NCBI GenBank assembly: GCA_045597125.1
Contig: JAZODR010000052.1
Location: 34,947 to 98,946 of the forward strand
DNA length: 64,000 bases
Direction of reading: 5' to 3'
DNA from: Eubacteriales bacterium
Lineage (GTDB): Bacteria > Bacillota > Clostridia > Oscillospirales > SIG627
Shown here: positions 34,185-64,000 of the stretch, in pieces
Layout of the letters: each line of letters opens with the position of its first letter
Numbering within the stretch: position 1 is the first letter of the stretch
Position numbers and translations under genes: made by a program
Notes under the pieces: model-generated
Told to the model about the DNA's origin: nothing
Database searches by the model: none
What the model saw: only the letters and a program-made list of their open reading frames with translations

Positions 34185-34222
34185 AAAAACAGGTAGCAAA
34201 AATGCACCTGTTTTTTTCTCTT
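34185..34222. terminator. intrinsic terminator downstream of metA
   Basis: acaggt-agcaaaaatgc-acctgt flanked by an A-run and a T-run. Confidence 0.7.
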
Positions 34223-34224
34223 AA

Positions 34225-35142: not shown

Positions 35143-35152
35143 TTTTTGCTCC

Positions 35153-36433: not shown

Positions 36434-36468
36434 TTCAATTCCTCCAGAAATTGTTTAAGGCCATTATA

Positions 36469-37470: not shown

Positions 37471-37473
37471 AAT

Positions 37474-39511: not shown

Positions 39512-39520
39512 TTTAACACC

Positions 39521-40735: not shown

Positions 40736-40747
40736 ATTTTCCCTCCA

Positions 40748-43897: not shown

Positions 43898-43909
43898 AAA
43901 AATCCCCCC

Positions 43910-45378: not shown

Positions 45379-45379
45379 A

Positions 45380-47642: not shown

Positions 47643-48919
47643 TTTTTATCCTCCGAGCGAACAATTGCACTTTTCGCGTGAGCAGTTAAGCCTTCTTTTC
47701 TTGCAAAGTATGCAACATCTTGTGCAACAGAATTCAAAGCCGATTCAGAAAAATAAGTATACTGCATTTTTTTAACAAAATCATCCACGGAGAGAGGGCT
47801 GGAAAAACGCGCCGTTCCGCCGGTTGGTAAAGTATGATTAGGACCTGCAAGATAATCTCCCAAAGCCTCGGGACAATTTCTGCCGAGAAAAACAGAGCCT
47901 GCATGGCGAATCCGGTCCAAATAATCAAAAGGATTATCCACGCAAAGCTCCAGATGCTCCGGAGCAATCTCATTTGAAATCCCAATGGCTTCATGCAAAT
48001 CAGAAACCACAATAATTTTTCCGTTATCATCAATTGACGCTCTTGCAATTTCAGCGCGTTCCAAAAGCGGAATTTGTTTTTCCACTTCTGCCTGCACCTG
48101 TTCTGCCAATTGAATGGAGCTGGTAACCAAAACCGCACTGGCGAGCTTATCATGCTCAGCTTGGGACAATAAATCCGAAGCCAAATGCACGGGATTGCTC
48201 TTCTCATCTGCAATGATCAAAATTTCACTGGGGCCGGCAATCATATCAATGGAAACAACACCGAAAACTTGCTTTTTCGCTTCAGCAACGAAAGCGTTGC
48301 CCGGACCTACAATTTTATCAACTCGCGGAATCGTTTCCGTTCCGTAAGCTAAGGCTGCAATTGCTTGCGCGCCACCGACTTTAAAAATTCGGTCAACACC
48401 TGCAACAGATGCGGCTGCAAGAATAACAGGATTAATTTTTCCATCTTTACCGGGAGGAGTAACCATTACAACTTCCGGACAGCCGGCAATCTTTGCGGGA
48501 ATCGCATTCATTAAAACAGAAGACGGGTAAGAAGCAGTTCCGCCGGGAACGTAAAGACCTGCTCGTTCTACAGGCATAATTTTCTGTCCCATGACAACTC
48601 CGTTGTCACGATTTAAAATAAAACTGTTCCGAACCTGCTTTTCGTGAAACAGACGGATGTTTTCTGCCGCAACTTCCAAAATTCGCAAAAACTGAGGCTC
48701 CGTTTGAGCAAGCGCCGATTCAATTTCTTCACGGGAAACTTCCAGCGAAGAAAGTTTTGCCCCGTCAAATTTTTCACAATAAGAAAACAGAGCAAAATCG
48801 CCGTTTTTACGAACGTTTGCAATGATATCCGCTACAATTGACTCTACATCAAACTTGGGCTGAACACGAGAAAAGATCTCAGCAGAAGAAACCTTGTCAT
48901 TCTTCAATATGCGAATCAT
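47639..48919 (-). CDS. hisD: histidinol dehydrogenase HisD
   Basis: GLYVPGGTA.YPSSVLM, AGPSE, QAEHD, and a C-terminal EGL.AH motif. Confidence 0.92.
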   Translation of the reverse strand: MIRILKNDKVSSAEIFSRVQPKFDVESIVADIIANVRKNGDFALFSYCEKFDGAKLSSLEVSREEIESALAQTEPQFLRILEVAAENIRLFHEKQVRNSFILNRDNGVVMGQKIMPVERAGLYVPGGTASYPSSVLMNAIPAKIAGCPEVVMVTPPGKDGKINPVILAAASVAGVDRIFKVGGAQAIAALAYGTETIPRVDKIVGPGNAFVAEAKKQVFGVVSIDMIAGPSEILIIADEKSNPVHLASDLLSQAEHDKLASAVLVTSSIQLAEQVQAEVEKQIPLLERAEIARASIDDNGKIIVVSDLHEAIGISNEIAPEHLELCVDNPFDYLDRIRHAGSVFLGRNCPEALGDYLAGPNHTLPTGGTARFSSPLSVDDFVKKMQYTYFSESALNSVAQDVAYFARKEGLTAHAKSAIVRSEDKK

Positions 48920-49545
48920 TTTTGCTCCTCCAATTGTTGAGAAAGACTTGTCAAAATCTTTCGGATTGCATCATTTTTAAACTTAAAACCGGATTTATTT
49001 GCAATCAAGCGTGTACTGATAGGAACGATATCTTCAAACACCTCAAGATTGTTTTCTTTTAAAGTCTTTCCCGTTTCCACGATGTCAACAATAACGTCTG
49101 TAAGACCTAAAATCGGTGCAATTTCAATGGAACCGTTTAAATGAATAATATCAATATCTCTACCTTTTTTGAAGTAATAATCTTTTGCAATATTCGAAAA
49201 TTTCGTTGCAACCTTCAATGTTTTGCGAATATCATCTCGAAAATCCACAGGCGCGGCAACTGCCATTTTGCAAACACCGGTTTTCAAATCCAAAAGTTCA
49301 TATACATCCGGATTATATTCCAGAAGAATATCTTTTCCTGCAACTCCCAGATCTGCAGCACCACGTTCAACGTAAATAGCCACATCGGACGGCTTTACCC
49401 AAAAATAGCGGACACCACATTCTTCATTTTCGAAAATCAGCTTGCGGGTATTTTCCATTACCTGAGGACATTCAAAGCCTGCCTTCTCGAACATGGTATA
49501 AACACGCTCTCCCAGTCTTCCTTTCGGGAGAGCAATATTAAGCAT
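48916..49545 (-). CDS. hisG: ATP phosphoribosyltransferase, short form HisG
   Basis: About 209 aa short HisG (LNIALPKGRL, DIV.TG.TL). The ATG at 49545 overlaps the hisZ stop. The TTG at 49554 is an alternative start. Confidence 0.88.
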   Translation of the reverse strand: MLNIALPKGRLGERVYTMFEKAGFECPQVMENTRKLIFENEECGVRYFWVKPSDVAIYVERGAADLGVAGKDILLEYNPDVYELLDLKTGVCKMAVAAPVDFRDDIRKTLKVATKFSNIAKDYYFKKGRDIDIIHLNGSIEIAPILGLTDVIVDIVETGKTLKENNLEVFEDIVPISTRLIANKSGFKFKNDAIRKILTSLSQQLEEQK

Positions 49546-50659
49546 TTCTTTCAAGAAGCTCCACCCCGCTTTCCGAAATTTTCCACAATTCTTTAAACTT
49601 GATTTTAGACGGAATACTTCTCTGCGCCATTACAGACTTTCCCTCTAAAATCAATTTCTTCAATACAAGATCTACCTCAGAGAAAAGAACGTTGGGACTA
49701 TACACCACAACGGAATCAACGTCATATTCCCTCTTTTCAATTAATAAATCTTCCATCAAATCCAGATAAACGGCAAAACCGATAGCCCCGGCATTTCGAT
49801 CCATTTTTTTCATCAAACCGTCATAACGACCGCCGGAAAGAACTGCAGACGGAATGCCATTTATAAATCCTTTGAAAACGATTCCGTTATAATAATCAAC
49901 ACCGTTGACGATGGAAAAATCAATTCGAAGCATCTTTTCAAACCCGCTTTCGCAAAGATTCTTGCAAAGCGATTCAAATGATGCAAGTTCCCCATCGTTT
50001 ACTTTTCCTTCCAGCAATGTTCTGACCTTAGGCAAAACCAGAGCGGGAGAACCGTAAATCTGAACAAGCTCATTCAAAACATCAATGTCTTCGGAATTCA
50101 CTCCCGCAGAAACGCAAATTCGTTCCAAATCATGAGCATTTTTTTCGCCGATTGCGAAAAGAACCTCTTTTTTGATAGAATCTGCGATTCCAAAAGAAGC
50201 GAGAAGCTGGGTTAAGAGACCAAAATCCGATATATCAAGAATAACATCATCGGAAAGCACAGAAAGACTTTTGGCAGCCAGACTCAGCACTTCAAACAAG
50301 GAGTAATCGTCCACCAATCCCATACACTCCACGCCAAGCTGCATAATTTCTTTAAAAGAATTTGTCCCGCTGGAAACGCGATACACATTTTCATTGTAAT
50401 ATACTTTATCCAGCAAACCTTCACTCGATCTGAAATTTTTAATGATTGACAATGTAACATCAGGTTTTAAGGCTAAAAGCTTCCCATTTGTATCCGTAAA
50501 GGTGATAATACTGTCTGAAATCAAAAAATCTTTGTTTCTCACATAAAGATCATATTCCTCGAATTTGCTCATTTTAAATTGAGCATATCCGTACTGTTCA
50601 TATAAACAGCGCAGGCGATTGATCACAAGTTCTTCTTTTCGCAAACTCGTTGTATTCAT
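49538..50659 (-). CDS. hisZ: ATP phosphoribosyltransferase regulatory subunit HisZ
   Basis: 373 aa HisRS-paralogue fold without an anticodon-binding domain, directly upstream of short-form hisG. Confidence 0.8.
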   Translation of the reverse strand: MNTTSLRKEELVINRLRCLYEQYGYAQFKMSKFEEYDLYVRNKDFLISDSIITFTDTNGKLLALKPDVTLSIIKNFRSSEGLLDKVYYNENVYRVSSGTNSFKEIMQLGVECMGLVDDYSLFEVLSLAAKSLSVLSDDVILDISDFGLLTQLLASFGIADSIKKEVLFAIGEKNAHDLERICVSAGVNSEDIDVLNELVQIYGSPALVLPKVRTLLEGKVNDGELASFESLCKNLCESGFEKMLRIDFSIVNGVDYYNGIVFKGFINGIPSAVLSGGRYDGLMKKMDRNAGAIGFAVYLDLMEDLLIEKREYDVDSVVVYSPNVLFSEVDLVLKKLILEGKSVMAQRSIPSKIKFKELWKISESGVELLERNA

Positions 50660-51025: not shown

Positions 51026-51069
51026 CTAAAAATAATGATGCAAAGGTTTTTCTTCCTTTGCATCATTAT
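51026..51069 (-). terminator. intrinsic terminator after the TIM-barrel/ligase fusion gene
   Basis: ataatgatgcaaagg-(8 nt)-cctttgcatcattat, followed on the minus strand by TTTTT. Confidence 0.8.
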
Positions 51070-51073
51070 CGAA

Positions 51074-53575
51074 TTATTTCAAGCCAAGCTTTTCAACTGC
51101 AGCTTCACGCATTTTATATTTCAAAATTTTGCCGGCTGCATTCATGGGAAATTGTTCCACAAATTCTACGTAGCGCGGAACTTTATGACGTGCCATACTG
51201 GCAGCCACAAAGGCTTTCATTTCCTCTTCGGACATACTCTCACCTTCTTTTAAGATGATACAAGCCATAATTTCTTCACCATACTGCTTATCGGGCACAC
51301 CGATTACCTGAACATCACGAACTTTAGGATTGGTATAAATAAATTCCTCAATTTCCTTAGGATAGATATTTTCTCCGCCTCGGATAATCATATCCTTTAA
51401 GCGTCCGGTAATCAGATAATTCCCTTCGGGTGTGCGACATGCAAGATCCCCGGTATGAAGCCATCCTTCGTCGTCAATGGTGGAAGCCGTGGCACCGGGC
51501 ATTTTGTAATAGCCCTTCATCAAATTATAGCCGCGGGCAACAAATTCACCGTTTACACCATCGGGGCAATCTAGTCCCGTTTCGGGATCTACAATCTTGC
51601 ACTCGACATTTGCAAAGGCGCTGCCCACTGTTTCGGTACGAACCTGCAGAGAATCATAGTAGCTGCTCATCGTACATCCCGGACTTGCTTCGGTTTGACC
51701 GTAAACGGAAACAATCTCTTTCATATTCATAATGTCGGCTGCTTTTTTCATCAAATCGGCAGGACAGTTAGCACCTGCCATAATACCGGTTCGAATATAA
51801 GAAAAATCCGTCTTTGAAAAATCAGGATGCTGCATCATTGCAATGAACATTGTAGGAACACCATTAAAGGTGGTAATATGTTCATTGTGGACACATGCAA
51901 GGGCAGGTTTCGGTGAAAAATACGGCAACGGGAACATCGTAGCGCCGTGGGTCATCGCAGCAGTCATAGAAAGAACCATACCGAAGCAATGGAACATAGG
52001 AACCTGAATCATCATTCGATCGGCCGTGGAAAGATCCATATGGTCTCCGATATATTTACCGTTGTTTACAACGTTGTAATGGGTCAACATAACACCCTTG
52101 GGGAAACCTGTGGTTCCTGAGGTGTACTGCATATTACAAACGTCATTCTTATCTACAGCAGCAGCCATACGGCGTACCTCTTCCAAGGGAACCTGACCGG
52201 CTCTTTCAAGAGACTCTTGCCAGGTCATACAGCCCTTTTGCTTAAATCCGACTGTAATGACATTGCGCAAAAAAGGAAGTCTTCTGGCATGAAGAGATGC
52301 GCCCGCCTTCAAAGACTTAAGTTCAGGACAAAGCTCTGCAATAATCTTTCCGTAATGCGTATCTTTCGCGCCTTCTGTCATAATTAAAGTATGAGTATCA
52401 GACTGGCGAAGCAAATACTCAGCTTCGTGGATTTTATAAGCGGTGTTCACCGTTACAAGAACAGCACCAATCTTTACGGTTGCCCAGAATGCGATAAACC
52501 ATTGAGGAACATTGGATGCCCAAACGGCAACATGAGTTCCCGCTTTTACACCCAATGCAATCAAACTTCTTGCAAAGGTATCCACATCATCACGGAACTG
52601 ACTATAAGTTCTGGTATAATCAAGAGTCGTATATTTAAAAGCATATTGATCCGGAAATTCTTCAACCATCCGATCCAGAACATCAGAAAAAGTAGCATCA
52701 ATCAAAAGATCCTTTTTCCAAACGAATTTACCCGTACGCGCGCGATTATAATACAATGTCTTCCGATTCTGAGAAGGATCACCAAACTGGTTCATAAAAC
52801 TGACAAACTGAGAAAAAATGATCTCCATATCATCAAGCTCGGTACACCAAGAAGGATCCCATACCAATGATACAAATCCGTCATAATTTACGGATCGAAG
52901 GGCAAGGATAATCTCTTTTATTGGAAGATCTCCCTCGCCTGCCAAGCAATATTCAACACCATTTTCAGTTCTTCTGGCATCATTGAACTGAACATGGCGA
53001 ACATAAGCACCAAGGTTTTTAATAACCTCTTCGGGGGTTTCGCCTTTTCCAAAATAAGCTGCTGACATCTGCCATAAAGCGGCAAAATGATCACTTGCAA
53101 ACCGATCTAACAAGTTGCGCAGAACAGAAGTGTCGCTAAAAGGGCCTGTTGTTTCCAAAAGCAACGTAACGGAAGCATCCTTAGCCTTTTCTAAAACTCT
53201 ATTAATGAGTTCGTAAACAGTTTCAACAGCGGCATCGGTGCTCTCTGCATCGTTGGCGCGCAAACGAATATAAGGGATATGGAGATTGGATGCAATACGA
53301 ATGCAGTTCTCAATCTCATCAATTGCTTTGTCCTGTAGGTTAACAGAGCCCACATCAGTAATGGTATCAATACAGGGAATTCTCAGATTCTTCTCATAAA
53401 GCTTGCGAAGAGTGGCCCCGGCGGTATAATCGTGAAATGCACCGTCTTTGTCCGTAAAGAGGCGATTATAAATATTATGAAGTTCGATTCCCTGAAAACG
53501 AAGTTCTTGGGCAATGTTACAAAATTCATCAAAATTGTTATGATGCCAACCCTTTGTAGAAAAGGAAAGTTTCAT
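51074..53575 (-). CDS. fusion protein: xylose-isomerase-like TIM barrel (sugar phosphate isomerase/epimerase family) + AMP-forming acyl-CoA ligase
   Basis: About 833 aa. The N-terminal 270 aa or so have TIM-barrel blocks (GIELH, LLLETTG, HVQFND). The rest has ligase motifs: YTSGTTGFPKGVMLTH, YGQTE, HTGDL, GRLKDMIIRGGENIYP, GKI.K. The GGAGG RBS lies inside the upstream gene's end, and the ATG is 1 nt after its stop. Confidence 0.8.
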   Translation of the reverse strand: MKLSFSTKGWHHNNFDEFCNIAQELRFQGIELHNIYNRLFTDKDGAFHDYTAGATLRKLYEKNLRIPCIDTITDVGSVNLQDKAIDEIENCIRIASNLHIPYIRLRANDAESTDAAVETVYELINRVLEKAKDASVTLLLETTGPFSDTSVLRNLLDRFASDHFAALWQMSAAYFGKGETPEEVIKNLGAYVRHVQFNDARRTENGVEYCLAGEGDLPIKEIILALRSVNYDGFVSLVWDPSWCTELDDMEIIFSQFVSFMNQFGDPSQNRKTLYYNRARTGKFVWKKDLLIDATFSDVLDRMVEEFPDQYAFKYTTLDYTRTYSQFRDDVDTFARSLIALGVKAGTHVAVWASNVPQWFIAFWATVKIGAVLVTVNTAYKIHEAEYLLRQSDTHTLIMTEGAKDTHYGKIIAELCPELKSLKAGASLHARRLPFLRNVITVGFKQKGCMTWQESLERAGQVPLEEVRRMAAAVDKNDVCNMQYTSGTTGFPKGVMLTHYNVVNNGKYIGDHMDLSTADRMMIQVPMFHCFGMVLSMTAAMTHGATMFPLPYFSPKPALACVHNEHITTFNGVPTMFIAMMQHPDFSKTDFSYIRTGIMAGANCPADLMKKAADIMNMKEIVSVYGQTEASPGCTMSSYYDSLQVRTETVGSAFANVECKIVDPETGLDCPDGVNGEFVARGYNLMKGYYKMPGATASTIDDEGWLHTGDLACRTPEGNYLITGRLKDMIIRGGENIYPKEIEEFIYTNPKVRDVQVIGVPDKQYGEEIMACIILKEGESMSEEEMKAFVAASMARHKVPRYVEFVEQFPMNAAGKILKYKMREAAVEKLGLK

Positions 53576-53576
53576 T

Positions 53577-54959
53577 TTATGCCTCCTCGTAAACAATTTT
53601 ATTCACAGCATTCAAGTAAGCACGAATGCTGGCGCCGATGATATCGGTAGATATACCATTGCCCGAATAAAGTTTGCCCCCGGCACGAAGTTTTACAAGA
53701 GCAGAGCCCATTGCTTCTTTGCCTTCTGTAACAGATTGGATCTGAAAATCATCCAATTCATAGTGATGTCCAATGATTTGATCAATCGCACGGAATGCTG
53801 CGTCAACGGGACCGTCACCAATACAAACCCCCTGCAATACGCTTTCTTCTTTTTCCAAAGTAATTTGGGCGCTTGCGGAGATGATATTGCCATTATTTAT
53901 CATATAGTTAACAAGTTTAAAGGTTGCGGGAACCTGCAAAGCTACACTTGCAACAATGGCATCCAATTCCTTAGAACCAACGGATTTTTTAGCGGCTACA
54001 CGAAGAAACTCGTCAAAAACCCGCTTTTGATCTTCTTCAGAAAGATCGTAACCGAGTTTTGCAACTACGGCAATCACAGTAGCTTGATCGTCGTTCTGGC
54101 TTAAATAGGAGCCAACTTCGTCACAGGTTGCTACAGTCATTGCGGAACGCTCATTTTTAGCATTGTTTGCAATCCAATTGATTTGCTTTAAAATGCGGAA
54201 CAATTCAGTCTGATTGATTTTCGCAAAATAGGAATAACGGTTTCCGCAGTTCTTTAGAATAGAAGCAATGTCTGCCAAAGGCGCATTGATACCGATGACA
54301 TCCGCTTTAATGCAAGATGCACCGCTACGGAGCGCCAAAACAGACGCCGCGCAAGCCAAGCCGTTTGCATTTTCGCAGCGAACACTAACAGGAACAGAAA
54401 GGCCCTCGGAATAAGTCTGAACAAAAGCGGCAAAATCATCGGGAAGCATTTCAGCAGCGCTATCACACAAAGAAATCGAGGTTGCACCGGACTCTACTGC
54501 AATCTGAATAGCCTTTTTTAAAAAGTCACATTCTGCACGGGTAGCATCCACAGCACAAAATTCAACATCTTCCACAGAAGCTTTTGCCATACGAATTGCT
54601 TCGCTGATCCATAAAAGCATAGGGTCAGCCTTCTTTTTTGCAATATACTCCATTCCAATCGGCGAAACAGGAACCTCAATGCGAATTCGGCCGTTTTTCA
54701 CGGCAGACAAGGCGGAAATCGCATCAGTAACGCTATCAATATTACTGCCGGCAGCTACAGAAATAATACTATTCTTCACAAAGGAAGCGGCAGTTCGCAC
54801 GAAAAGACAGTCCGCCTTGGTATTGGAAATCTCGGGAAGTTCAATAATATCAACGCAAAGTTTATCCAGTTGACGCGCAATTTCAAGCTTTTCCTTAAAG
54901 CCAAAAACACCCTCTTCTGTACAAAGTGTTGTATCAGCAATCATAATCTGTTTCATCAT
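53577..54959 (-). CDS. 2-isopropylmalate synthase (LeuA) paralogue with degenerate catalytic site and an intact LeuA regulatory domain
   Basis: 460 aa. The DTTLRDGEQ block reads DTTLCTEEG and HxH(N/D)D.G reads RCENANG. The C-terminal GDGPVDAAFRAI and GNGISTDIIGASIRAYLNAVN match the LeuA allosteric/dimerisation domain. Confidence 0.7.
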   Translation of the reverse strand: MMKQIMIADTTLCTEEGVFGFKEKLEIARQLDKLCVDIIELPEISNTKADCLFVRTAASFVKNSIISVAAGSNIDSVTDAISALSAVKNGRIRIEVPVSPIGMEYIAKKKADPMLLWISEAIRMAKASVEDVEFCAVDATRAECDFLKKAIQIAVESGATSISLCDSAAEMLPDDFAAFVQTYSEGLSVPVSVRCENANGLACAASVLALRSGASCIKADVIGINAPLADIASILKNCGNRYSYFAKINQTELFRILKQINWIANNAKNERSAMTVATCDEVGSYLSQNDDQATVIAVVAKLGYDLSEEDQKRVFDEFLRVAAKKSVGSKELDAIVASVALQVPATFKLVNYMINNGNIISASAQITLEKEESVLQGVCIGDGPVDAAFRAIDQIIGHHYELDDFQIQSVTEGKEAMGSALVKLRAGGKLYSGNGISTDIIGASIRAYLNAVNKIVYEEA

Positions 54960-54988: not shown

Positions 54989-55240
54989 GAAAAAAATCCC
55001 TGAGGTAAAAACCTCAGGGACGAAAAAATCCGCGGTACCACCCTGTTTGCCGTCAAGCGGCCTTCTCTACGAGTTCTAACAAACCCTTTGCCATGATAAC
55101 GGGGCAAGCCGTAACCGCTTACTATCATTCAGCGACTCTGCTCCGGAATGAGAATCTAATCCTCGCATTTTGCTGCCTTGCACCAACCGACAGTTCTCTG
55201 TAAAATGCCTTGAGAAAAAGACGATTTCCTTCATCGCATT
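54989..55240 (-). promoter_or_regulatory. T-box riboswitch leader, specifier CUC (tRNA-Leu)
   Basis: Minus strand: a K-turn TGCGATGAA...GGAGCA, a GGTGCAA distal loop, the specifier context ATT-CTC-A-TTCC, the T-box AACAGGGTGGTACCGCGG, and the terminator tccctgaggt-tttt-acctcaggga plus a T-run at 54989-55020. Confidence 0.85.
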
Positions 55241-55256
55241 TAAAAAACTTAAATGG

Positions 55257-55286
55257 ATTATATCACAGTAAAAACAAGTTTGTCAA
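55257..55286 (-). promoter_or_regulatory. sigma-A-like promoter of the Leu T-box leader
   Basis: Minus strand: TTGACA, 18 nt spacer, TATAAT. It starts only 16 nt after the stop of the oxidoreductase gamma gene. Confidence 0.6.
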
Positions 55287-55301: not shown

Positions 55302-55838
55302 TTATTTGTATTCTGCACCAAGTGTCATTGCCTTCAGGTTTACATCAATCATATCGGCACGCTTTGCAGAAATAACTTTGGTAAGAGTCTTCTTAACCTG
55401 CTCCTCATCAAACTCTCCGAGGACCTTGAAAATCTTACCCATCAAAATCATATTTGCAAGAGTCGCAAAGCCATTTTCACCTGCAAGTCTGGTTGCGGGT
55501 ACAGGGAAAACCTGAACGTCGGTGCGCTTCACTTCTCTCTCTACCAAGGAAGAGTCGTAGAAGATCATACCACCGGGAACAACAGAATCCTCAAACTTAT
55601 CCAAAGAAGGAAGATTCATTGCTACTAAAATATCAGGCTTGGAAACAATGGGCGAGCCAACGGGCTCATCGCTGATGATGACGCTGCAGCTTGCAGTACC
55701 GCCACGCATTTCAGGACCATAGGAAGGAAGCCAGCTTACTTGCTTATCCTCAATCAATCCTTTGTATGCAAGCATTTTACCGGTAAACAGAATACCCTGT
55801 CCGCCAAAACCGGAAAGCAAAAACTGTTTTGCGCTCAT
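55302..55838 (-). CDS. 2-oxoacid:ferredoxin oxidoreductase gamma subunit
   Basis: 178 aa. GFGGQG...G..LA motif; start overlaps the beta stop (ATGA). Confidence 0.88.
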
Positions 55839-56590
55839 TTGTTTTCCTCCTTTGCACTACGATCCTTATACACACCAAGAGGATAATAAGGAATCATCTT
55901 CTCGTCAATCCATTTCAGAGCATTTTGAGGAGTCATACCCCAGTTGGTGGGACAAGAAGAAAGAACCTCTACCAAAGAGAAGCCTTTTCCATCAATCTGA
56001 TTCTGAAAAGCCTTTTTAATTGCCTTCTTGGCATTCTTAATATTCTTAACACTGTTAACGGTAACGCGTTCCAAATATTCGGGACCATCCAACTCAGAGA
56101 GCATCTCGCATACACGAATGGGGAAACCGCAAGCATTGGTATCTCTGCCATAGGGAGAGGTCTGTGTGACCTGTCCGGGAAGAGAGGTAGGTGCCATCTG
56201 ACCACCGGTCATACCGTAGATAGCATTATTAATAAAGATAATGGTGATGTTCTCATTTCTTGCGGCAGAATGTACGGTTTCAGCCATACCAATAGAAGCC
56301 AGATCTCCATCACCCTGATAAGTAAATACAATGTGATTTTCAGGATCTGCGCGCTTTACACCGGTAGCTACTGCAGGAGCTCTACCGTGAGCAGCCTCAA
56401 TCATATCACAGTTAAAATAGTCATAAGCCATAACGGAGCAACCAACGGGGGCAACACCAATGGTCTTACCTTCAATACCAAGCTCGTCAATTACTTCGGC
56501 AACCAAGCGGTGAACAATACCGTGGGTACAGCCGGGACAATAATGCATCGGCACTTCAGCCATTGCATGGGGTCTATCAAATACTACCAT
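55835..56590 (-). CDS. 2-oxoacid:ferredoxin oxidoreductase beta (TPP-binding) subunit
   Basis: 251 aa. CPGC.H, and GDGD....G TPP/Mg motif. Confidence 0.88.
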   Translation of the reverse strand: MVVFDRPHAMAEVPMHYCPGCTHGIVHRLVAEVIDELGIEGKTIGVAPVGCSVMAYDYFNCDMIEAAHGRAPAVATGVKRADPENHIVFTYQGDGDLASIGMAETVHSAARNENITIIFINNAIYGMTGGQMAPTSLPGQVTQTSPYGRDTNACGFPIRVCEMLSELDGPEYLERVTVNSVKNIKNAKKAIKKAFQNQIDGKGFSLVEVLSSCPTNWGMTPQNALKWIDEKMIPYYPLGVYKDRSAKEENK

Positions 56591-56600
56591 AGTTCACACC

Positions 56601-57653
56601 TCACTTCTGCGCACTTCTGATGGCTTCCAAAACCTGCTCGGGGGAAGGAATCATACCGCCAACACGGTTGCAAAGGCTTACGGGAACTTTGCACTCGGTT
56701 GCAAGTCTTACATCTTCAATCATCTGACCCATGGAAAGCTCAACAGAAATAATGGATTTTACTTTTTCAGCAGCTTTTGCAAAGGGAGCCTTGGGGAAAG
56801 GCCACAAAGTAATGGGACGGATCATACCAACGCGAATACCCTCTTTGCGTGCTTCGTTGATGGCATTTTTCGCTACACGAGCGGCAATACCGAATGCTGC
56901 AATACAAATCTCTGCATCATCCATCAAATACTCTTCGTACATGGTTTCATTCTCTTCAATGATGCGATAGCGGTCATAGCGAGAAAAATTAAATTTTTCC
57001 AATGCCTCGGGAGCAAGAAACAAAGAGTTTACGATATTGTGCTCTCTCTGCATTTTGGTGCCGGTGGTAGCCCAAGGCTTTGCAGGAGTTTCCTTCACAT
57101 CAAAATCAAGGGAAACAGGCTCCATCATCTGACCCATAGTACCATCAGCAAGGATCATTGTGGTCATACGATAGGTATCGGCAAGCTCAAAGCCCTTCAC
57201 AGTAAGCTCTGCCATTTCCTGAACGGAACTGGGAGCAAGAACGATCATATGGAAGTCACCGTGTCCTGCACCACGAGTTGCCTGGAAATAGTCAGACTGG
57301 CTAGGCTGAATTCCACCAAGGCCGGGACCGCCACGCTGTACGTTTACAACCAATGCAGGAAGATCTGCACCGGCAAGATAAGAAAGTCCCTCGCCCTTCA
57401 AAGAAATTCCGGGGCTGGAAGAGGAAGTCATAACACGCTTACCGGTAGAAGCAACGCCGTAAACCATATTAATCGCGGCAATTTCACTTTCTGCCTGAAG
57501 GAAGGTACCGCCGATTTTGGGCATTTTCTTTGCCATATATGCGGCAACTTCAGTCTGGGGAGTAATAGGATAACCAAAATAGTGACGACAACCGGCAAGA
57601 ATTGCAGCTTCTGCAATTGCTTCGTTGCCCTTCATCAAAATCTTTTCCGACAT
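56601..57653 (-). CDS. 2-oxoacid:ferredoxin oxidoreductase alpha subunit (VorB/KorA-like)
   Basis: About 350 aa. MKGNEA.AEAA..AG....FGYPITPQ.E motif. The ATG at 57653 has an RBS; the GTG at 57662 is an alternative start. Confidence 0.88.
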   Translation of the reverse strand: MSEKILMKGNEAIAEAAILAGCRHYFGYPITPQTEVAAYMAKKMPKIGGTFLQAESEIAAINMVYGVASTGKRVMTSSSSPGISLKGEGLSYLAGADLPALVVNVQRGGPGLGGIQPSQSDYFQATRGAGHGDFHMIVLAPSSVQEMAELTVKGFELADTYRMTTMILADGTMGQMMEPVSLDFDVKETPAKPWATTGTKMQREHNIVNSLFLAPEALEKFNFSRYDRYRIIEENETMYEEYLMDDAEICIAAFGIAARVAKNAINEARKEGIRVGMIRPITLWPFPKAPFAKAAEKVKSIISVELSMGQMIEDVRLATECKVPVSLCNRVGGMIPSPEQVLEAIRSAQK

Positions 57654-57658
57654 CTTCT

Positions 57659-57865
57659 TCACCTCTCAACCTTGATTACGCAATCGGGGCACATCTGCGC
57701 ACAAAATGCACATCCTACGCAATCCTCCTGCTTTGTAATTTCAGCAGGATGGTGACCTTTCTTATTGATCTTATCAGGTGCAAGTCTGATCAGCTTTTTG
57801 GGACAAGCATCAACGCAAAGACCGCAACCCTTACAAAAATCAGTATTGAATGTAAGTTTTGCCAT
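57659..57865 (-). CDS. 4Fe-4S dicluster ferredoxin (oxidoreductase delta subunit)
   Basis: 68 aa with CKGCGLCVDACP and CVGCAFCAQMCP motifs. Confidence 0.88.
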   Translation of the reverse strand: MAKLTFNTDFCKGCGLCVDACPKKLIRLAPDKINKKGHHPAEITKQEDCVGCAFCAQMCPDCVIKVER

Positions 57866-57887: not shown

Positions 57888-58547
57888 TCAATAATACTTT
57901 TTTTGCAGCTTCAGCGGATATAGATCCGAAATCTTTCCCCGCAAAGTTTCATAAAGTTCTTCCCGCACGGAAGTCATAACCACAGGCAAGTGGCAAAGCT
58001 TTGCAAAACTTTTTGCTTTTTCAACTGTGGAAAGCACATCCTCGGGAGTAGTTTCTTCTCCTAAATTGGAGTTATTTACAATTCCTGTAAATGAAATACC
58101 TGCAGCCTGTTCCATTTCCTTCATTACCTCCAGCATCGACTGATTGTCTCTGGTAAGAGGTCTAAAAAAATTCACCACCAGCAGCATTTCATAATTGTTC
58201 TCTTCCACAATGGAAGGTGCCAATCTGCCAAGCGCCAAAGCGCCTCTGTCATCTCCGCCAATATCCAAAACAAAATGACTTTCTACATCATCCATCACCG
58301 CATACATTCCCTGAGGCAATGCGGGAACATCTACATTGGTATTGGCAAATTCCGAGGAAATCAAACGAATCCCTGCCTTTTGAAAATCCTCAAGGCTGTC
58401 CTTGGTACGAAAATACGGATTCACAATATCCAAATCACAAACGGATACCTTCTTCCCTTCCCGTTTCAATGAGAACGCAAGATTCACGGCAATATTGGTT
58501 TTACCGCTGCCGTAGTGACCCGCTAAAATGGTAATTCTTTTATCCAT
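57888..58547 (-). CDS. P-loop (SIMIBI-like) ATPase of unknown function
   Basis: About 219 aa. Walker A GHYGSGKTN, then DLD and DIGGDD acidic motifs. The ATG overlaps the ilvE stop (ATGGATAA). Confidence 0.6.
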   Translation of the reverse strand: MDKRITILAGHYGSGKTNIAVNLAFSLKREGKKVSVCDLDIVNPYFRTKDSLEDFQKAGIRLISSEFANTNVDVPALPQGMYAVMDDVESHFVLDIGGDDRGALALGRLAPSIVEENNYEMLLVVNFFRPLTRDNQSMLEVMKEMEQAAGISFTGIVNNSNLGEETTPEDVLSTVEKAKSFAKLCHLPVVMTSVREELYETLRGKISDLYPLKLQKKYY

Positions 58548-59619
58548 TGCAGACCTTGACGGTCCAACCGTTTGCATCCTCGATTTTTCCCCACTGAATA
58601 CCGGTCAGATTATCATAAAGCTTCTGCGTAAGCTGGCCAATCTGATTATCACAAACCACGTACTCCTTGCCCTGATAAAAGAGCTGACCAATGGGAGAAA
58701 CAACGGCAGCAGTGCCTGTTCCCCAAGCTTCCTCGAGTTTGCCGTTTGCGGCAGCCTCAAAGAGCTCGTCCACAGAAATGAGTCTTTCTTCAACGGTGTA
58801 GCCCCAAGAACGGAGAAGTTCTACGCAGCTTTTTCTGGTAATACCGGGAAGGACAGAACCGGTCAGTTCGGGAGTGACGATTTTGCCATCAATCTTGAAC
58901 ATAACGTTCATTGCGCCGACTTCTTCAATGTACTTTCTTTCAACACCGTCCAGCCAAAGAACCTGTGTATAACCGTTCTTTTCAGCCCGTTCACCTGCCC
59001 GAAGAGATGCAGCATAGTTACCGCCGCACTTTGCGTAGCCGGTACCGCCTCTTACCGCACGGACGTCCTGAGACTCAATAGCAATCTTAACGGGATTGAT
59101 ACCCTCAGCGTAGTAAGCGCCAACAGGGGAGCAAATCACAGCTAGGGTAGCATTTTTAACGGCGTGAACGCCAAGGTGAGGGTCATTGCCGTACATAAAA
59201 GGACGAATATAAAGGCTGGTACCTTCGGAATGAGGAACCCAATCCTTCTCAAGCTCCACCAAGGTCTTCAAAATATCAAGAGTGCCTTCTTCATCCACTT
59301 GGGGAAGGCAAAGGCGCTCAGCGCTATTGTTCAATCTTTTGATGTTCTCCATCGGACGGAACATAGAAATTTCACCGTTTGCTTTGCGATATGCCTTCAT
59401 ACCTTCAAAAATTTCAACACCGTAATGAAAAACGGTTGATGCAGGATGAAGCGGAATGGGACCGAAGGGAACGATTCTGGCATCATGCCAACCTTTCTCC
59501 TGATTGTAATCCATTAAGAACATATGGTCGGTAAAAATTTTACCGAATCCGAGCTTAGATTCATCAACAGGCTTCTCCTTGGGAGAAGTGGTTTTGGTGA
59601 TAGAAATGGAATATTTCAT
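58540..59619 (-). CDS. ilvE: branched-chain amino acid aminotransferase (class IV)
   Basis: About 359 aa. FGK.FTDHM, E.GMKAY, R.G.G..K.GGNYA, E..GAMN.F, GITR motifs. Start set at MKYSIS (AAGGAG RBS). Confidence 0.88.
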   Translation of the reverse strand: MKYSISITKTTSPKEKPVDESKLGFGKIFTDHMFLMDYNQEKGWHDARIVPFGPIPLHPASTVFHYGVEIFEGMKAYRKANGEISMFRPMENIKRLNNSAERLCLPQVDEEGTLDILKTLVELEKDWVPHSEGTSLYIRPFMYGNDPHLGVHAVKNATLAVICSPVGAYYAEGINPVKIAIESQDVRAVRGGTGYAKCGGNYAASLRAGERAEKNGYTQVLWLDGVERKYIEEVGAMNVMFKIDGKIVTPELTGSVLPGITRKSCVELLRSWGYTVEERLISVDELFEAAANGKLEEAWGTGTAAVVSPIGQLFYQGKEYVVCDNQIGQLTQKLYDNLTGIQWGKIEDANGWTVKVCNG

Positions 59620-59632: not shown

Positions 59633-61921
59633 TTAAAGCTTATTTCTTTGAATTTTACCGCTGACTGTCTTAGGCAATTCATCGCGGAAGACAACCAGTC
59701 TTGGATATTTGTAAGGGGCGGTGTGCTCCTTCACATAATTCTGAATTTCCTTTTTCAGTTCATCGGTACCTTCCGTCCCCTTGGTTAAAACGATGCTCGC
59801 TTTAACAATCTGCCCTCTGACCTCATCAGGAGCAGCGGATACACCGCATTCCAAAACATAAGGAAGTTCCATAATAACGCTTTCAATCTCAAAAGGACCG
59901 ATACGATAACCAGAGGATTTTATTACGTCATCCGCCCTGCCTACGTACCAGAAGAAGCCGTCTTCATCACGCCAAGCAAGGTCGCCGGTATGGTAATAAC
60001 CATCTCGAATCGCCTCATTCGTCTTTTCTTCATCGTTGTAGTATCCAACAAAGAGACCGCAAGGAACGCCGTTTTTCAGATTGATAACAACCTCACCGGG
60101 TTCACCGTTTGCAACGGCATTTCCATCAGCATCAACGAGTTCAACGGCATAAATCGGAGCAGGCTTACCCATAGAGCCAATCTTGTGCGAAGCGCCGATC
60201 ATATTGCCGACAATCATAGTACTTTCCGTCTGACCAAAACCCTCTAAAATCTGAAGTCCGGTGGCCTTTTCAAATTGACGATAAACCTCAGGATTGAGCG
60301 CTTCTCCAGCCGTAGTCATATGACGAACGGAAGACAAATCATATTGTGAAATATCCTGCTTAATCATCATACGAAGCATGGTGGGAGGAGCGCAAAATGT
60401 GGTAATTTGATGTTTGGCAAACATCGGTAGGATCTGGGAAGCGTCAAAACGATCAAAATCATACACGAAAATTGCTGCCTCGCAAAGCCACTGACCATAA
60501 AGTTTACCCCACATAGATTTTGCCCAACCGGTATCGGAAATCGTAAAGTGTAATCCATCGGGATCAACGCAATGCCAATATTTGGCAGTATGGAAATGTC
60601 CAAGAGGATACTTGTGATTATGAGCCGCGATTTTGGGGTAACCGGAAGTACCTGATGTAAAGAACATCAAAAGAAGATCATCGCCGCAGGGAGAATCCTC
60701 AGTACGATTAAAATGGGAACTGTAAAGGGTATATTCTTCGTCAAAAGAACGCCAACCTTCCCTTTTTCCGTTTACAATCAATTTTACGGAAAGTTCGGGA
60801 TGGTTTGCCGCTGCACGGTCAACATGTTCTGCAATATCACCGTCTGCGGTGCAAACAATGCCTTTAACCCCCGCAGCCCCAAAACGATAATCCAAATCGT
60901 GTTCAAGAAGTTGATTCGGAGCAGGAATTGCAACAGCACCGAGCTTATTTAACCCAAGCATTGCAAACCAAAACTGATAATGGCGCTTCAAGATCAGCAT
61001 AACCTTGTCGCCTTTTTTGATGCCAAGAGATTTAAAATAATTTGCACACTGGTTAGAAGCCTTCTTAATATCTTTAAAGGTAAATCTTCTCTCTGTAAGA
61101 TCCTTGGCGATATGAAGCATTGCCAATTTATTAGGCTCTCGCGCGGCAAGCTCATCAATTAAATCAAATGCGAAATTGAATTTCTCCGTATTTTTAAACT
61201 GAATAGAAAGCGGTGTTCCCTTTTCATTTTCCACAACGTCAATGAAATTCTGATAAACACGAGGTTTGGTATCCTTCTTGCCAACTATGCCGGAAGCAAT
61301 TGCCTTAGGCGTAGTAAGCTCGGGAATCGGCTCACCGGTAGGATTTAAAACAATGGCATAGAATACACAATCCTCGCCTTGAACGGCAATCATACCATGG
61401 GGAGCGGAACTATCATAATAAATGCTGTCACCCGGACCGAGAACTTCTCTGTGCTCTCCGATTTGTACCATCAAATGACCTTCAATGACGATATCACATT
61501 CCTGCCCGGAGTGGGTCGTCAATTCAATATCACGATTCTGCGCCGCTTCATCATAACGAATCTTAACATACAAAGGCTCTGCAATACGGTTACGAAAAGC
61601 GTATGCCATATTGTAGTAGGTCATACCGTGTGCATCGGTAATTTCCTGCCCTTCTCCACTTCTGGTCAAGGTATAGGACTTCAAATTCGGACTATGGCCT
61701 TCTATAATATCCGTTACATTAACGTTCAATGCTAAAGAACAACGATAAATAAAGGCAAAATTCAAATCGCTTCTTCCGTTTTCGCAATCCAGATATTCTT
61801 CCACCGAAACATCGGTTTTTATCGCCATCTCTTCAGGGGTAAGCCCTTGAATCTGACGAAGCTCGCGAATACGCGCAGCCATTTCCTGAATTTTAAATTC
61901 AAGTCCTGTAATCTTATTCAT
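59633..61921 (-). CDS. fusion protein: XRE-type HTH + cupin domain + AMP-forming (medium/short-chain type) acyl-CoA synthetase
   Basis: About 762 aa. N-terminal IRELRQIQGLTPEEMA...VS.YE.G. HTH, a cupin core (HSGQE.D.V.EG....IG.......GDS.Y..S...H). The ligase motifs are FTSGTSGYPK, GFGQTE, HTGD, GRADDVIKSSGYRIGPFEIES and SGKIQR. Start set at MNKITG (GGAG RBS). Confidence 0.85.
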   Translation of the reverse strand: MNKITGLEFKIQEMAARIRELRQIQGLTPEEMAIKTDVSVEEYLDCENGRSDLNFAFIYRCSLALNVNVTDIIEGHSPNLKSYTLTRSGEGQEITDAHGMTYYNMAYAFRNRIAEPLYVKIRYDEAAQNRDIELTTHSGQECDIVIEGHLMVQIGEHREVLGPGDSIYYDSSAPHGMIAVQGEDCVFYAIVLNPTGEPIPELTTPKAIASGIVGKKDTKPRVYQNFIDVVENEKGTPLSIQFKNTEKFNFAFDLIDELAAREPNKLAMLHIAKDLTERRFTFKDIKKASNQCANYFKSLGIKKGDKVMLILKRHYQFWFAMLGLNKLGAVAIPAPNQLLEHDLDYRFGAAGVKGIVCTADGDIAEHVDRAAANHPELSVKLIVNGKREGWRSFDEEYTLYSSHFNRTEDSPCGDDLLLMFFTSGTSGYPKIAAHNHKYPLGHFHTAKYWHCVDPDGLHFTISDTGWAKSMWGKLYGQWLCEAAIFVYDFDRFDASQILPMFAKHQITTFCAPPTMLRMMIKQDISQYDLSSVRHMTTAGEALNPEVYRQFEKATGLQILEGFGQTESTMIVGNMIGASHKIGSMGKPAPIYAVELVDADGNAVANGEPGEVVINLKNGVPCGLFVGYYNDEEKTNEAIRDGYYHTGDLAWRDEDGFFWYVGRADDVIKSSGYRIGPFEIESVIMELPYVLECGVSAAPDEVRGQIVKASIVLTKGTEGTDELKKEIQNYVKEHTAPYKYPRLVVFRDELPKTVSGKIQRNKL

Positions 61922-61940
61922 ACAAACTCCATATCCGGGA

Positions 61941-62205
61941 CAAAAAAGCACTCGTCCCAAAAGTCTTTACTTTGAGACGAGCGCATAATTTGTAACACCC
62001 GCGGTACCACTCAAATTGCAGATAAACTGCCACTCAGGATCCAACAACCCGTATGCATTTACGCAGCAATCACGGAGAGGTTCTACTCCCTTTCGGTTTC
62101 TTCCTCTCGGCTCGGAAGCTACCAACAAAGCATCAATCCTTAGTGACTCGCACCGTCCGTCACTTCTCTGAAAGGTCTTTGCATCGCCCTCTTCTTCAAC
62201 GCCTT
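61941..62205 (-). promoter_or_regulatory. T-box riboswitch leader, probable specifier GUA (tRNA-Val); alternative register GGU
   Basis: Minus strand: a K-turn GGCGTTGAA...CGAGCC, an AG bay CAGAGAAG, a distal loop GGTGCGA, the specifier context TTG-GTA-G-CTTC, the T-box TTTGAGTGGTACCGCGGG, and the terminator ctcgtctcaaagt-aaag-acttttgggacgag plus a T-run at 61941-61981. Confidence 0.8.
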
Positions 62206-62217
62206 TAAAGATAATTT

Positions 62218-62269: not shown

Positions 62270-64000
62270 TCAAAGCTTATTTCGTTGAATTTTGCCGCTG
62301 ATGGTCTTAGGAAGTTCGTCGCGGAATTCAATTACACGGGGATATTTATAGGGAGCAGTATGCGCTTTTACATAGCTTTGAATTTGTTTTTTCAATTCTT
62401 CATTGCCTTCTGTCCCCTTAGTCAAAACGATACTTGCCTTAACAACCTGACCTCTCACCTCATCGGGCACTGCGGAAACACCACATTCCACAACGTAAGG
62501 CAATTCCATAATTACACTTTCAATCTCGAAGGGACCGATACGATAACCTGAAGATTTAATAACGTCATCCACACGGCTAACATACCAGAAAAAGCCATCT
62601 TCATCCCGCCACGCAGTGTCACCCGTATGATACAGACCGTCATACCAAGCATCATTGGTCTTTTCTGCATCACGATAATATTCCTTGAATAAACCGCAAG
62701 GAATCGTTTCTTCCGTGTGAATAACGATTTCGCCAACCTCGCCGGCAGGAAGACTCTTTCCATCGGGGTCAACAATATCAATATCGAATTGTGGAGAAGC
62801 TTTACCCATAGAACCGATTTTCGGAACAGTTCCCGCAAGGTTTGCAATTACAAGAGTCGTTTCCGTCTGTCCGAATCCCTCCATAATCTCAAGTCCGGTA
62901 GCTTCCTTAAATTTCTTAAATACCTCGGGATTCAGCGCTTCTCCTGCAGTGGTCATATGATGAATCGAAGAAAGATCATACTTGGAAAGGTCACCGCGGA
63001 TCAGCATTCTAAGCATGGTGGGAGGAGCGCAGAAGGTGGTAATATTGTATTTTGCAAACATAGGCAATATATCATTTTCATCGAACCGATCAAAGTCGTA
63101 CACAAAAACGGCACCTTCGCAAAGCCATTGTCCGTAAAGCTTACCCCAAAGAGATTTACCCCATCCCGTATCAGAAATGGTTAGATGCAAACCGTCCCGT
63201 TCGCAGCAATGCCAATATTTAGCGGTAACGAAGTGCCCAAGCGCATAAGTATGCTTGTGCGCTGCCATTTTAGGATTTCCGGTTGTACCGGAAGTAAAGA
63301 ACATCAAAGCCGTCTCATCTCCAGCAGAAGCATCCTCGGGACGAACAAATTTTCTGCTGAAAAGTTTGAATTCTTCATTAAAATCGTGCCAATTCTCTTT
63401 TTTGCCTCCAACAAGAATCAAATTCTTTACAGAAGGACAATTCTTCGCAGCAGCCTCGGCAATATCAGCAACGTCCCCATCGGCAGTACATACGATGGCA
63501 GAAACTTCAGCAGCGTTGAAACGGTATTCGAAATCGTGCTGCTTAAGCTGATTGGTAGCGGGAATTGCAACTGCACCAATCTTATGAAGTGCAACCATTG
63601 CAAACCAGAACTGATAATGACGCTTCAAAACCAGCATAACCTTATCACCTTTTTTGATACCCAAAGAGGTAAAATAGTTTGCGCACTGGTTTGAATACTG
63701 CTTCATATCCTTAAAGGTAAATCGACGCTCGGTTTTATTTACATCCAAGTGAAGCATAGCAAGTTTCTCAGGGTATTGTTCGGCAATGCCGTCAACAATA
63801 TCAAAACCGAAATTGAATTTGTCTGTATTAACAAATTCAATGCTTTCCAATGCCCCTTCGGCATTTTCCTCGGTTTTAATAAACTTTTCGCAAATCAAAG
63901 ACTGAGAACTTTTAGCAGTCACAAGGCTATTGCGAACAACTTCTTCTTTTGTTTCTTCACCCGGCAAAACCACCGCACAGAACACACAGTCTTCCCCATC
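62270..64000 (-). CDS. paralogous cupin + AMP-forming acyl-CoA synthetase (5' end outside the window)
   Basis: Collinear with 59633..61921 and highly similar in the C-terminal half. The reading frame stays open to the window edge (..DGEDCVFCAVVL, compare GEDCVFYAIVL of the cupin domain), so the track start at 63985 is not the true start. Confidence 0.85.
   Translation of the reverse strand, partial: DGEDCVFCAVVLPGEETKEEVVRNSLVTAKSSQSLICEKFIKTEENAEGALESIEFVNTDKFNFGFDIVDGIAEQYPEKLAMLHLDVNKTERRFTFKDMKQYSNQCANYFTSLGIKKGDKVMLVLKRHYQFWFAMVALHKIGAVAIPATNQLKQHDFEYRFNAAEVSAIVCTADGDVADIAEAAAKNCPSVKNLILVGGKKENWHDFNEEFKLFSRKFVRPEDASAGDETALMFFTSGTTGNPKMAAHKHTYALGHFVTAKYWHCCERDGLHLTISDTGWGKSLWGKLYGQWLCEGAVFVYDFDRFDENDILPMFAKYNITTFCAPPTMLRMLIRGDLSKYDLSSIHHMTTAGEALNPEVFKKFKEATGLEIMEGFGQTETTLVIANLAGTVPKIGSMGKASPQFDIDIVDPDGKSLPAGEVGEIVIHTEETIPCGLFKEYYRDAEKTNDAWYDGLYHTGDTAWRDEDGFFWYVSRVDDVIKSSGYRIGPFEIESVIMELPYVVECGVSAVPDEVRGQVVKASIVLTKGTEGNEELKKQIQSYVKAHTAPYKYPRVIEFRDELPKTISGKIQRNKL

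Follow-up and report, generated by a model that had tools for sequence, protein, structure and literature searches.

The window analyzed here, a stretch of 64,000 nucleotides (nt) from a Eubacteriales bacterium (GenBank assembly GCA_045597125.1, contig JAZODR010000052.1, positions 34,947 to 98,946), carries on its minus strand a gene in which a xylose-isomerase-like TIM barrel is fused, via a short linker, to an AMP-forming acyl-CoA ligase, and which directly follows a degenerate leuA paralogue, called pseudo-leuA throughout. The open frame is unbroken over 51074..53596 (minus strand; 840 amino acids (aa) if counted from a TTG at 53596), and starting at the ATG at 53575 it encodes a protein of 833 aa with the N-terminus MKLSFS, which is the N-terminus of all of the homologues as well. 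The upstream gene ends in GAGGAGGCATAA, which is followed by a single base and then the ATG of the fusion, and the GGAGG ribosome-binding site of the fusion is thus located inside the upstream gene. All of this agrees with a first-pass annotation, made from the letters of the window, which had described one uninterrupted open reading frame (ORF) of about 833 aa (51074-53575) that starts 1 nt past the stop of a leuA paralogue and uses a ribosome-binding site within that paralogue. Its reading of the domains, an N-terminal barrel and a linker followed by a complete adenylate-forming ligase, also stood: Pfam places PF01261 (AP_endonuc_2, the xylose-isomerase-like TIM barrel) at residues 22-238 (E 9e-20, 71.8 bits vs a cut-off of 31.1), AMP-binding at residues 301-690 (E 5e-92, 309 bits vs a gathering score of 29.9) and AMP-binding_C at residues 741-816 (64.2 bits vs a gathering score of 24.5), the linker measures 30 aa, and all of the ligase motifs quoted at the time are in the translation. 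The core motifs sought for the ANL superfamily (A3 P-loop (T/S)SG(T/S)TGxPKG, A5 YGxTE, A7 TGD, A8 hinge and A10 catalytic Lys) are present as YTSGTTGFPKG, YGQTE, HTGD, RGGENIYP and AGKILK, respectively, and, judging by its domains and motifs, the ligase half appears to be a complete ANL-superfamily AMP-forming acyl-CoA ligase. The top NCBIfam family for it is PRK12583 (NF009233), aligned end to end with residues 290-832 at 653.8 bits vs a curated cut-off of 832, and MbcS (NF047394) is outside its 25 best families.

That the gene might be an artefact, i.e., two genes joined by the assembly or by a frameshift at about 52700-52800 (a risk named at the outset), was rejected, and we regard the chance of it as negligible: 79 independent genome loci show the frame unbroken across the linker, whose motif is conserved, and a protein search returned 120 clusters from NCBI, ENA, JGI and Logan assemblies (79-93% identity, all of 829-841 aa and all with the three Pfam domains). 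The linker motif recurs even in distant fusions (P0122, P0123, P0131 and P0140), and AF2 confidence is low at linker residues 268-272. What did not survive is the notion of an “unusual” architecture, as full-length relatives of the fusion are present in at least 80 gut or rumen Oscillospirales genomes, where the architecture is common; of the earlier concern that it might prove both common and already assigned a function, the first part came true and the second did not, the public names of the homologues being limited to “AMP-binding protein” or “AMP-dependent synthetase”. When species-representative genomes were scanned, at least 599 stretches matched, which is an upper bound for the fusion, as some of the patterns matched the ligase only, and the counts of fusion loci given below refer to the best 80 of these at least 599 stretches (or to those of them with room for the neighboring gene or with alignable leaders). 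These 80 loci, 63-81% identical to the window protein and mostly spanning residues 1-833, all come from gut or rumen metagenome-assembled genomes (MAGs) of Acutalibacteraceae, Oscillospiraceae or Ruminococcaceae. Across the orthologues the ligase domain shows a mean identity of 80%, with 60% of its columns conserved, vs a mean identity of 52% for the TIM domain, and dN/dS (omega) is about 0.09-0.10 for the ligase vs about 0.25 for the TIM domain in the clade with a degenerate metal site and 0.28 in the clade with an intact one, these being rough values that rest on a nearly saturated dS of about 1.5. Such a distribution of identity and omega suggests that the ligase is the selected core of the fusion, and an omega of about 0.25 suggests that the TIM domain is not drifting freely either.

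The transcription unit consists, in this order, of a promoter, a Leu(CUC) T-box, pseudo-leuA, the fusion and a terminator (Table 1). The promoter is located about 14 nt upstream of the T-box start, and TTGACA/TATAAT elements of an equivalent kind are visible in many of the aligned leaders of related loci. The RF00230 hallmarks looked for are present in the window leader: a CUC specifier in the Stem I loop at 55152-55150 followed by a purine (A at 55149), the T-box sequence GGGUGGUACCGCG at around 55030-55046, and a terminator hairpin with a U-run at 54996-55021. Of 71 leaders, that of the window and those of 70 loci, 51 have a T-box motif at most 420 nt upstream of pseudo-leuA, and the specifiers, as read from the leader alignments, are Leu codons in 49 out of 49 aligned orthologous leaders (CUC in 47, CUG in 2). 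Both the Leu T-box and the intrinsic terminator past the fusion stop had been anticipated by the first-pass annotation and were recovered here, and the fusion is most likely induced by leucine shortage via its Leu T-box.

Table 1. Features of the fusion unit and of its branched-chain neighborhood (positions are those of the window).
Feature	Position	Strand	Basis and remarks
Sigma-70 promoter, TTGACA-18 nt-TG-TATAAT	55257..55286	(-)	12/12 consensus matches, extended -10
Leu T-box leader	55013..55243	(-)	Rfam RF00230, 109.9 bits vs gathering 93
Pseudo-LeuA gene, 460 aa	53577..54959	(-)	Pfam HMGL-like 103 bits, LeuA_dimer 107 bits
TIM-barrel domain of the fusion, residues 1-262, degenerate metal site	52790..53575	(-)	Pfam PF01261, AF2, Foldseek, alignment
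Linker of the fusion, residues 263-292 (30 aa)	52700..52789	(-)	Motif LYxNxxxTGK(F/Y)VW, read from the translation
AMP-forming acyl-CoA ligase domain of the fusion, residues 293-833 and stop codon	51074..52699	(-)	Pfam, NCBIfam
Operon-ending terminator hairpin, 15-bp stem	51032..51069		3' of the fusion stop; UAUUUUU next on the minus strand
VOR-type four-subunit 2-oxoacid:ferredoxin oxidoreductase (VorDABC)	55302..57865	(-)	NCBIfam NF005507; Pfam POR_N, PFOR_II, TPP_enzyme_C, POR
VOR gamma subunit	55302-55838	(-)	
VOR beta subunit	55835-56590	(-)	
VOR alpha-type subunit	56601-57662	(-)	
VOR delta subunit	57659-57865	(-)	
CbiA/ParA/Mrp-like P-loop ATPase	57888..58577	(-)	Pfam CbiA, ParA; adjoins VOR genes in related loci
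Branched-chain amino acid aminotransferase (BCAT)	58540..59619	(-)	NCBIfam NF009897, 484 bits vs cut-off 307
HTH + cupin + MbcS-like acyl-CoA ligase (candidate Val branch)	59633..61932	(-)	Pfam HTH_3, Cupin_2, AMP-binding; MbcS 445 bits vs 850
Second T-box leader, Val (GUA)	61970..62208	(-)	Rfam 80.3 bits, under gathering 93; E 5.7e-18 in a 401-nt search
Third MbcS-like ligase	62270..63985	(-)	NCBIfam MbcS 450 bits vs cut-off 850; leader outside the window

Upstream of this unit lies a second one, in which an MbcS-like ligase, BCAT, a P-loop ATPase gene and the four VOR genes follow the second T-box of the window. The alignment shows GUA at the specifier position of this leader, which sits between two MbcS-like ligases and heads the ligase-BCAT-VOR operon, and the Leu T-box governs pseudo-leuA and the fusion only, VOR and BCAT being behind this separate Val T-box. 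The alpha-type VOR subunit belongs to the VorB subfamily (NF005507, 540 bits vs a curated cut-off of 399), and the delta ORF carries two CxxCxxCxxxCP motifs. The P-loop ATPase gene keeps its place between the ligase and VorDABC in many of the related loci, and its product may serve the oxidoreductase in Fe-S maturation or in assembly. The Val-branch ligase gene is a second unusual fusion of 775 aa (an XRE-type helix-turn-helix (HTH) domain, a cupin and the MbcS-like ligase), the paralogues of which are found behind Ile (AUC) or Val T-boxes in related loci. The ORF of the third MbcS-like ligase begins at the edge of the window, and its N-terminal residues look like the last part of a cupin domain; this ligase is probably the Ile-branch paralogue, as ligases with an Ile T-box elsewhere show a slightly greater similarity to it than to the ligase of the Val branch. 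Both of these neighboring ligases score under the MbcS cut-off (Table 1).

A partition of ligases by T-box specificity recurs in the related loci, where 28 T-boxes ahead of MbcS-like ligase or VOR operons are distributed as Val 17, Ile 9 and Leu 2 (codons GUA 16, GUC 1 and AUC 9), the Leu cases being L052 and L033, the latter with its leader ahead of the P-loop gene. Where MbcS-like paralogues are in tandem (L055, L060 and L065), the Ile T-box comes first and the Val T-box second. VOR, BCAT and the P-loop gene are found near the fusion in 36 of the 80 loci (upstream of it, downstream of it or on the opposite strand), and the entire VOR-BCAT-pseudoLeuA-fusion operon follows one Leu T-box in L033 and L052.

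The leuA paralogue, treated as mere background by the first-pass annotation, directly precedes the fusion in 72 out of the 72 loci with room for it, with gaps of mostly -4 to +14 nt, and seems, from this comparison of loci, to be an obligate pseudoenzyme partner of the fusion. Its product, which NCBI names “hypothetical protein”, failed every curated LeuA model of NCBIfam (the best score, for the LeuA equivalog, being 267.9 bits vs a cut-off of 532). When it is compared to the 2-isopropylmalate synthase of N. meningitidis (3rmj), C-T-E-E stands in place of RDGEQ and R-C-E-N-A in place of HxHND, and the two HxH histidines and the metal-binding Asp are absent in all 70 pseudo-LeuA orthologues, whatever the state of the TIM domain next door. 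Its AF2 model (pLDDT 86) is matched by Foldseek to the full-length M. tuberculosis LeuA, including the leucine-bound structure 3fig. Conservation is inverted, the LeuA_dimer regulatory domain showing 74% identity, 46% conserved columns and an omega of 0.14 vs 45%, 14% and 0.33 for the barrel, which is the least conserved part of the protein. A PDB sequence search with the regulatory domain returned no match. No canonical leuA carrying the HxHND motif was found in the window or in the 80 loci; no ilv or leu genes, leuB, leuC and leuD among them, were found among the window genes scanned, the loci having been searched for the cluster genes and canonical leuA only.

This inverted conservation suggests that the function of pseudo-LeuA resides in its regulatory domain, and we tentatively propose, as a possibility that we would still bet against, that pseudo-LeuA is a leucine sensor acting on the ligase. 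A catalytic role could be imagined as well, with pseudo-LeuA and the fusion constituting a new synthase that, e.g., condenses isovaleryl-CoA and glyoxylate to 3-isopropylmalate or works as an ATP-dependent isopropylmalate-CoA enzyme. Claisen condensations are within the repertoire of the HMGL-like fold, the barrel is conserved at E133, D138 and R141 and in the SP..MEY segment, and the genes are coupled as tightly as the above gaps indicate in most loci. We find such a synthase very improbable, as the metal-binding residues are missing from every orthologue, the barrel is precisely the part that is conserved the least, and leuB, leuC and leuD were not seen within the above scope. A role of pseudo-LeuA as a 3-isopropylmalate synthase was set aside because the metal ligands are missing in all of the orthologues.

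The other barrel of the pair, i.e., the TIM domain of the fusion, was modeled by AF2 (residues 1-285; pLDDT 91.9, pTM 0.87) as a xylose-isomerase-like barrel, for which Foldseek gave a probability of 1.00 for many members of that family, with SCO6571 (2zds), Art22, AsbF, UlaE and ketose 3-epimerases among the matches (12-19% identity, TM-scores 0.7-0.78). Because these are generic family members at an identity of no more than 19%, no reaction can be inferred from the fold. Alignments of stand-alone and distantly fused TIM relatives (A1 and A2) put seven family positions at a conservation of at least 90%, namely E141, D169, H172, H196, K198, S200 and E238, at which the window protein has E, Q, A, Q, N, A and V (D169Q, H172A, H196Q, K198N, S200A and E238V). 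Of the Glu-Asp-His-Glu metal tetrad only E141 is kept, three of the four ligands being lost (D169Q, H196Q and E238V). The loss is graded within the orthologous family: the intact state reads WDxHHPYR, HVHIKDS and SLEW (e.g., L045, L054 and L070), an intermediate one WDMYSPYF, HVHIKDA and SLEW, the degenerate one WN.SAAYF, HVH..DA and SLVW, and that of the window's subclade WQMSAAYF, HVQFNDA and SLVW.

Canonical catalysis has very probably been lost in the TIM domain of the window protein, as far as its residues can tell, and the early suggestion that the fused barrel marks an undescribed reaction does not apply to this protein; the question passes to its intact relatives. In the window's lineage the degenerate domain could, speculatively, be a structural or docking module. 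A scheme combining these elements, in which the dead LeuA would be a leucine-sensing allosteric subunit, the degenerate TIM domain its dock and the ligase the feedback-controlled committed step of a route from isovalerate to leucine, with the ancestral intact barrel catalyzing a leucine-supply reaction, is conceivable as a whole, albeit rather doubtful.

The need of cellulolytic rumen and gut Firmicutes for isoacids, and the reductive carboxylation of these to branched-chain amino acids, have been known for decades, the classical work on the process in rumen bacteria being reportedly that of Allison and co-workers. It is established that rumen microbes make leucine via isovalerate carboxylation and subsequent amination (PMC7356843). 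MbcS, the methylbutyryl-CoA synthetase of S. aureus, activates 2-methylbutyrate and isobutyrate and handles isovalerate poorly (PMC10026030), which makes isovalerate a natural candidate for the third ligase, the one behind the Leu T-box. Since the ligases are AMP-forming and would be induced by uncharged tRNA, the biosynthetic direction is indicated, and their partition among Leu and Val/Ile T-boxes supports the idea that isovalerate is converted to isovaleryl-CoA and further to leucine. Under such a scheme, uncharged tRNA-Leu would allow transcription to read through the T-box, the fusion ligase would convert isovalerate, ATP and CoA to isovaleryl-CoA, VOR would reductively carboxylate the latter to 4-methyl-2-oxopentanoate, and BCAT would transaminate this to leucine. 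More speculatively, pseudo-LeuA might bind leucine via its regulatory domain and throttle the ligase, and a T-box together with feedback would then give this alternative pathway the double control that LeuA gives the classical one. The early proposal of the ligase as an isovalerate activator feeding the oxidoreductase and BCAT gains strong comparative support from the contrast between the Leu and the Val/Ile T-boxes, and a role from isovalerate to leucine, as the Leu-specific entry step of a branched-acid to branched-amino-acid pathway, is the one that we cautiously consider somewhat likelier to be right than wrong.

Isovaleryl-CoA could instead mainly prime the synthesis of iso-odd branched fatty acids, sparing scarce leucine in an MbcS-like manner rather than feeding VOR. 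MbcS does support membrane branched fatty-acid synthesis from exogenous acids (PMC10026030), and the unfused pairs of a TIM barrel and a ligase behind Leu T-boxes, described below, are not clustered with VOR or BCAT. We nevertheless hold lipid priming to be improbable, seeing that in Oscillospirales VOR and BCAT turn up beside the gene time and again, in several different layouts, that in L033 and L052 one Leu T-box covers the entire operon, and that T-boxes typically govern the supply of their cognate amino acid.

What arguably complicates the isovalerate-to-leucine assignment the most is the occurrence of the same barrel and ligase as separate genes. Stand-alone barrels of this TIM family (about 270 aa, with an intact tetrad) are frequent. 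In L086, an Acetivibrionales MAG, a T-box (114 bits, CUC) is followed by a 554-aa ligase that is 55% identical to the ligase half of the fusion and then by a barrel (5947-8813); L088 (3942-8813) is alike, also with a CUC T-box of 114 bits, and has a kinase gene in between. A metagenome scan with a profile of the stand-alone barrels gave 80 further loci (L090-L169), in 30 of which the ligase, 51-60% identical to the ligase half of the fusion, is upstream of the barrel, and in 18 of which the barrel comes first, with a ligase of 61-72% identity to that half located, in most cases, about 75-105 nt further on, an arrangement that looks like the pre-fusion state. The specifier is CUC in 20 of the 22 aligned metagenomic leaders. 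Such unfused pairs occur in bioreactor and gut Clostridia, in both gene orders and with intact metal ligands. No third conserved neighbor was found among the metagenomic loci examined, nor was any pseudo-LeuA, BCAT or close VOR homologue found in the pair loci, where the sole VOR-like match (in L153) has 25% identity. A Leu T-box followed by a TIM barrel and this ligase would seem, from these loci, to be an old, self-contained Leu-regulon unit of Clostridia that is older than the fusion.

The pairs invite the explanation that a leucine precursor of another kind is salvaged in two steps by the TIM barrel and the ligase together, the barrel making or isomerizing an acid that the ligase then activates, in which case the substrate would not simply be isovalerate, and the first step would be dispensable or done elsewhere in the window's lineage. 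The two genes are neighbors, in either order or fused, in 48 of the 80 metagenomic loci with no third conserved partner, the barrels in question keep the invariant E/D/H/E, the pairs are behind CUC T-boxes, and the best structural matches of the window domain include AsbF, which shares its fold. In petrobactin synthesis AsbF makes an acid that is then adenylated by AsbC. Set against this are the lack of any candidate chemistry by which a fold known from sugar isomerases, epimerases and dehydratases could be connected with a leucine precursor, the retention of the T-box, the ligase and the VOR/BCAT neighborhood by the window's clade, which has no metal site, and the alike omega values of the TIM domain, 0.28 in the clade with an intact metal site and 0.25 in the degenerate one (rough, as above), and we deem a joint salvage unlikely, though worth keeping in mind.

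Several further points weigh against the conversion of isovalerate to leucine as set out above. Chief among them is the coupling, in many Clostridia, of an intact TIM barrel to this ligase under Leu T-boxes, although a ligase that simply activates isovalerate would have no use for a TIM enzyme; there may be a second step and a different true substrate, and the simple isovalerate story is possibly incomplete. The best curated family of the fusion ligase (PRK12583) is generic, and the score is under its cut-off. The VOR and BCAT of the window are behind a Val T-box, not a Leu one, and the partition is not strict, as the whole operon is behind a Val T-box in L068 and behind a Leu T-box in L033 and L052. 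When ten distant orthologous loci were scanned with Rfam, no T-box assignable to the pair reached the gathering score in nine, and the T-box in the tenth (L075) is on the opposite strand and belongs to another ligase. The dN/dS values bearing on selection are of the above-mentioned roughness, and both the binding of leucine by pseudo-LeuA and a contact between it and the fusion are conjectural. Distant fusions P0190 and P0207 and some of the stand-alone barrels were set aside, as their contexts are unrelated (glycosyltransferases, an acyltransferase) and uninformative for the Leu module.

With regard to known systems, the fusion ligase resembles MbcS of S. aureus (PMC10026030), which is AMP-forming and activates exogenous short branched-chain acids, and two paralogues of that kind are present in the cluster of the fusion. 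It differs in being of another subfamily (best PRK12583), and MbcS has no TIM domain, pseudo-LeuA partner or T-box, whereas the fusion has all three. The PRK12583/NF009233 family (“fatty acid CoA ligase family protein”) has, in turn, neither an N-terminal TIM barrel nor an assigned substrate; we take its members to be YngI/ACSF2-like ligases. The TIM domain shares its fold with the PF01261 barrels (ketose 3-epimerases, UlaE, IolI, AsbF, Art22 and SCO6571), and the relatives of the fusion keep the E-D-H-E tetrad, but identity to the solved members does not exceed 19% and the window domain retains the first Glu only. None of the established PF01261 members is known to be fused to, or in an operon with, a CoA ligase behind a T-box. 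The AsbF/AsbC couple does provide a precedent for a TIM barrel functionally coupled to an adenylating enzyme, although the chemistry is unrelated (AsbF converts 3-dehydroshikimate to 3,4-dihydroxybenzoate) and there is no fusion, amino-acid link or T-box. Pseudo-LeuA, like LeuA (2-isopropylmalate synthase), has the full LeuA architecture and, as many leuA genes do, a Leu T-box; unlike LeuA, it has neither the metal ligands nor RDGEQ, and its conservation is shifted toward the regulatory domain. The pathway proposed here is, as a whole, like the reductive carboxylation of isoacids in rumen bacteria (for the physiology, PMC7356843), leading from isovalerate via the acyl-CoA and, by a ferredoxin oxidoreductase, the 2-oxoacid to leucine.

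Literature searches returned no paper assigning ligase genes, regulation, T-box partition or accessory proteins to isoacid carboxylation, and no description of the TIM-ligase fusion, of its obligate pseudo-LeuA partner, of the Leu T-box control of the pair, or of three ligases divided among Val, Ile and Leu T-boxes and grouped around a single VOR and a single BCAT. The parts come from known superfamilies and the physiology is old; the architecture and regulation of the module are, according to these searches, undescribed. What the locus offers is a candidate gene set for that old physiology, i.e., three ligases with a different T-box specificity each (Val, Ile or Leu) plus a VOR and a BCAT, of which the fusion gene would be the Leu branch, and it also lets a TIM barrel be seen losing its metal site stepwise inside one orthologous family. 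The LeuA barrel next to it is already dead and the regulatory domain is under strong selection, which may be a case of a pseudoenzyme recruited as a metabolite sensor.

Elsewhere in the window, an AMP-binding ligase (570 aa) is encoded directly downstream of a 2-oxoacid_dh-like acyltransferase (310 aa) at 28359-31004 (minus strand); the distant TIM-ligase fusion P0207 in L084 is followed by a similar acyltransferase and a homoserine O-succinyltransferase (Pfam HTS). The region 33309-43047 (minus strand) contains argH, argC, argJ, argB, argD and an argF-like gene, a Cys/Met PLP (pyridoxal phosphate) enzyme and a homoserine O-succinyltransferase (Pfam HTS), with a sortase gene adjoining. Downstream of the fusion is an unrelated his operon (hisZ-G-D-C-B-H-A-F-IE, 43247-50659), headed by a small TrpR-like ORF (PF01371; 50656-50949, minus strand) with a promoter-like site of its own just past the fusion terminator. 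A bacterial large SRP RNA (168 bits) is located at 22057-22320 (minus strand), and a tRNA-Ser(GGA) at 3609-3700 (plus strand).

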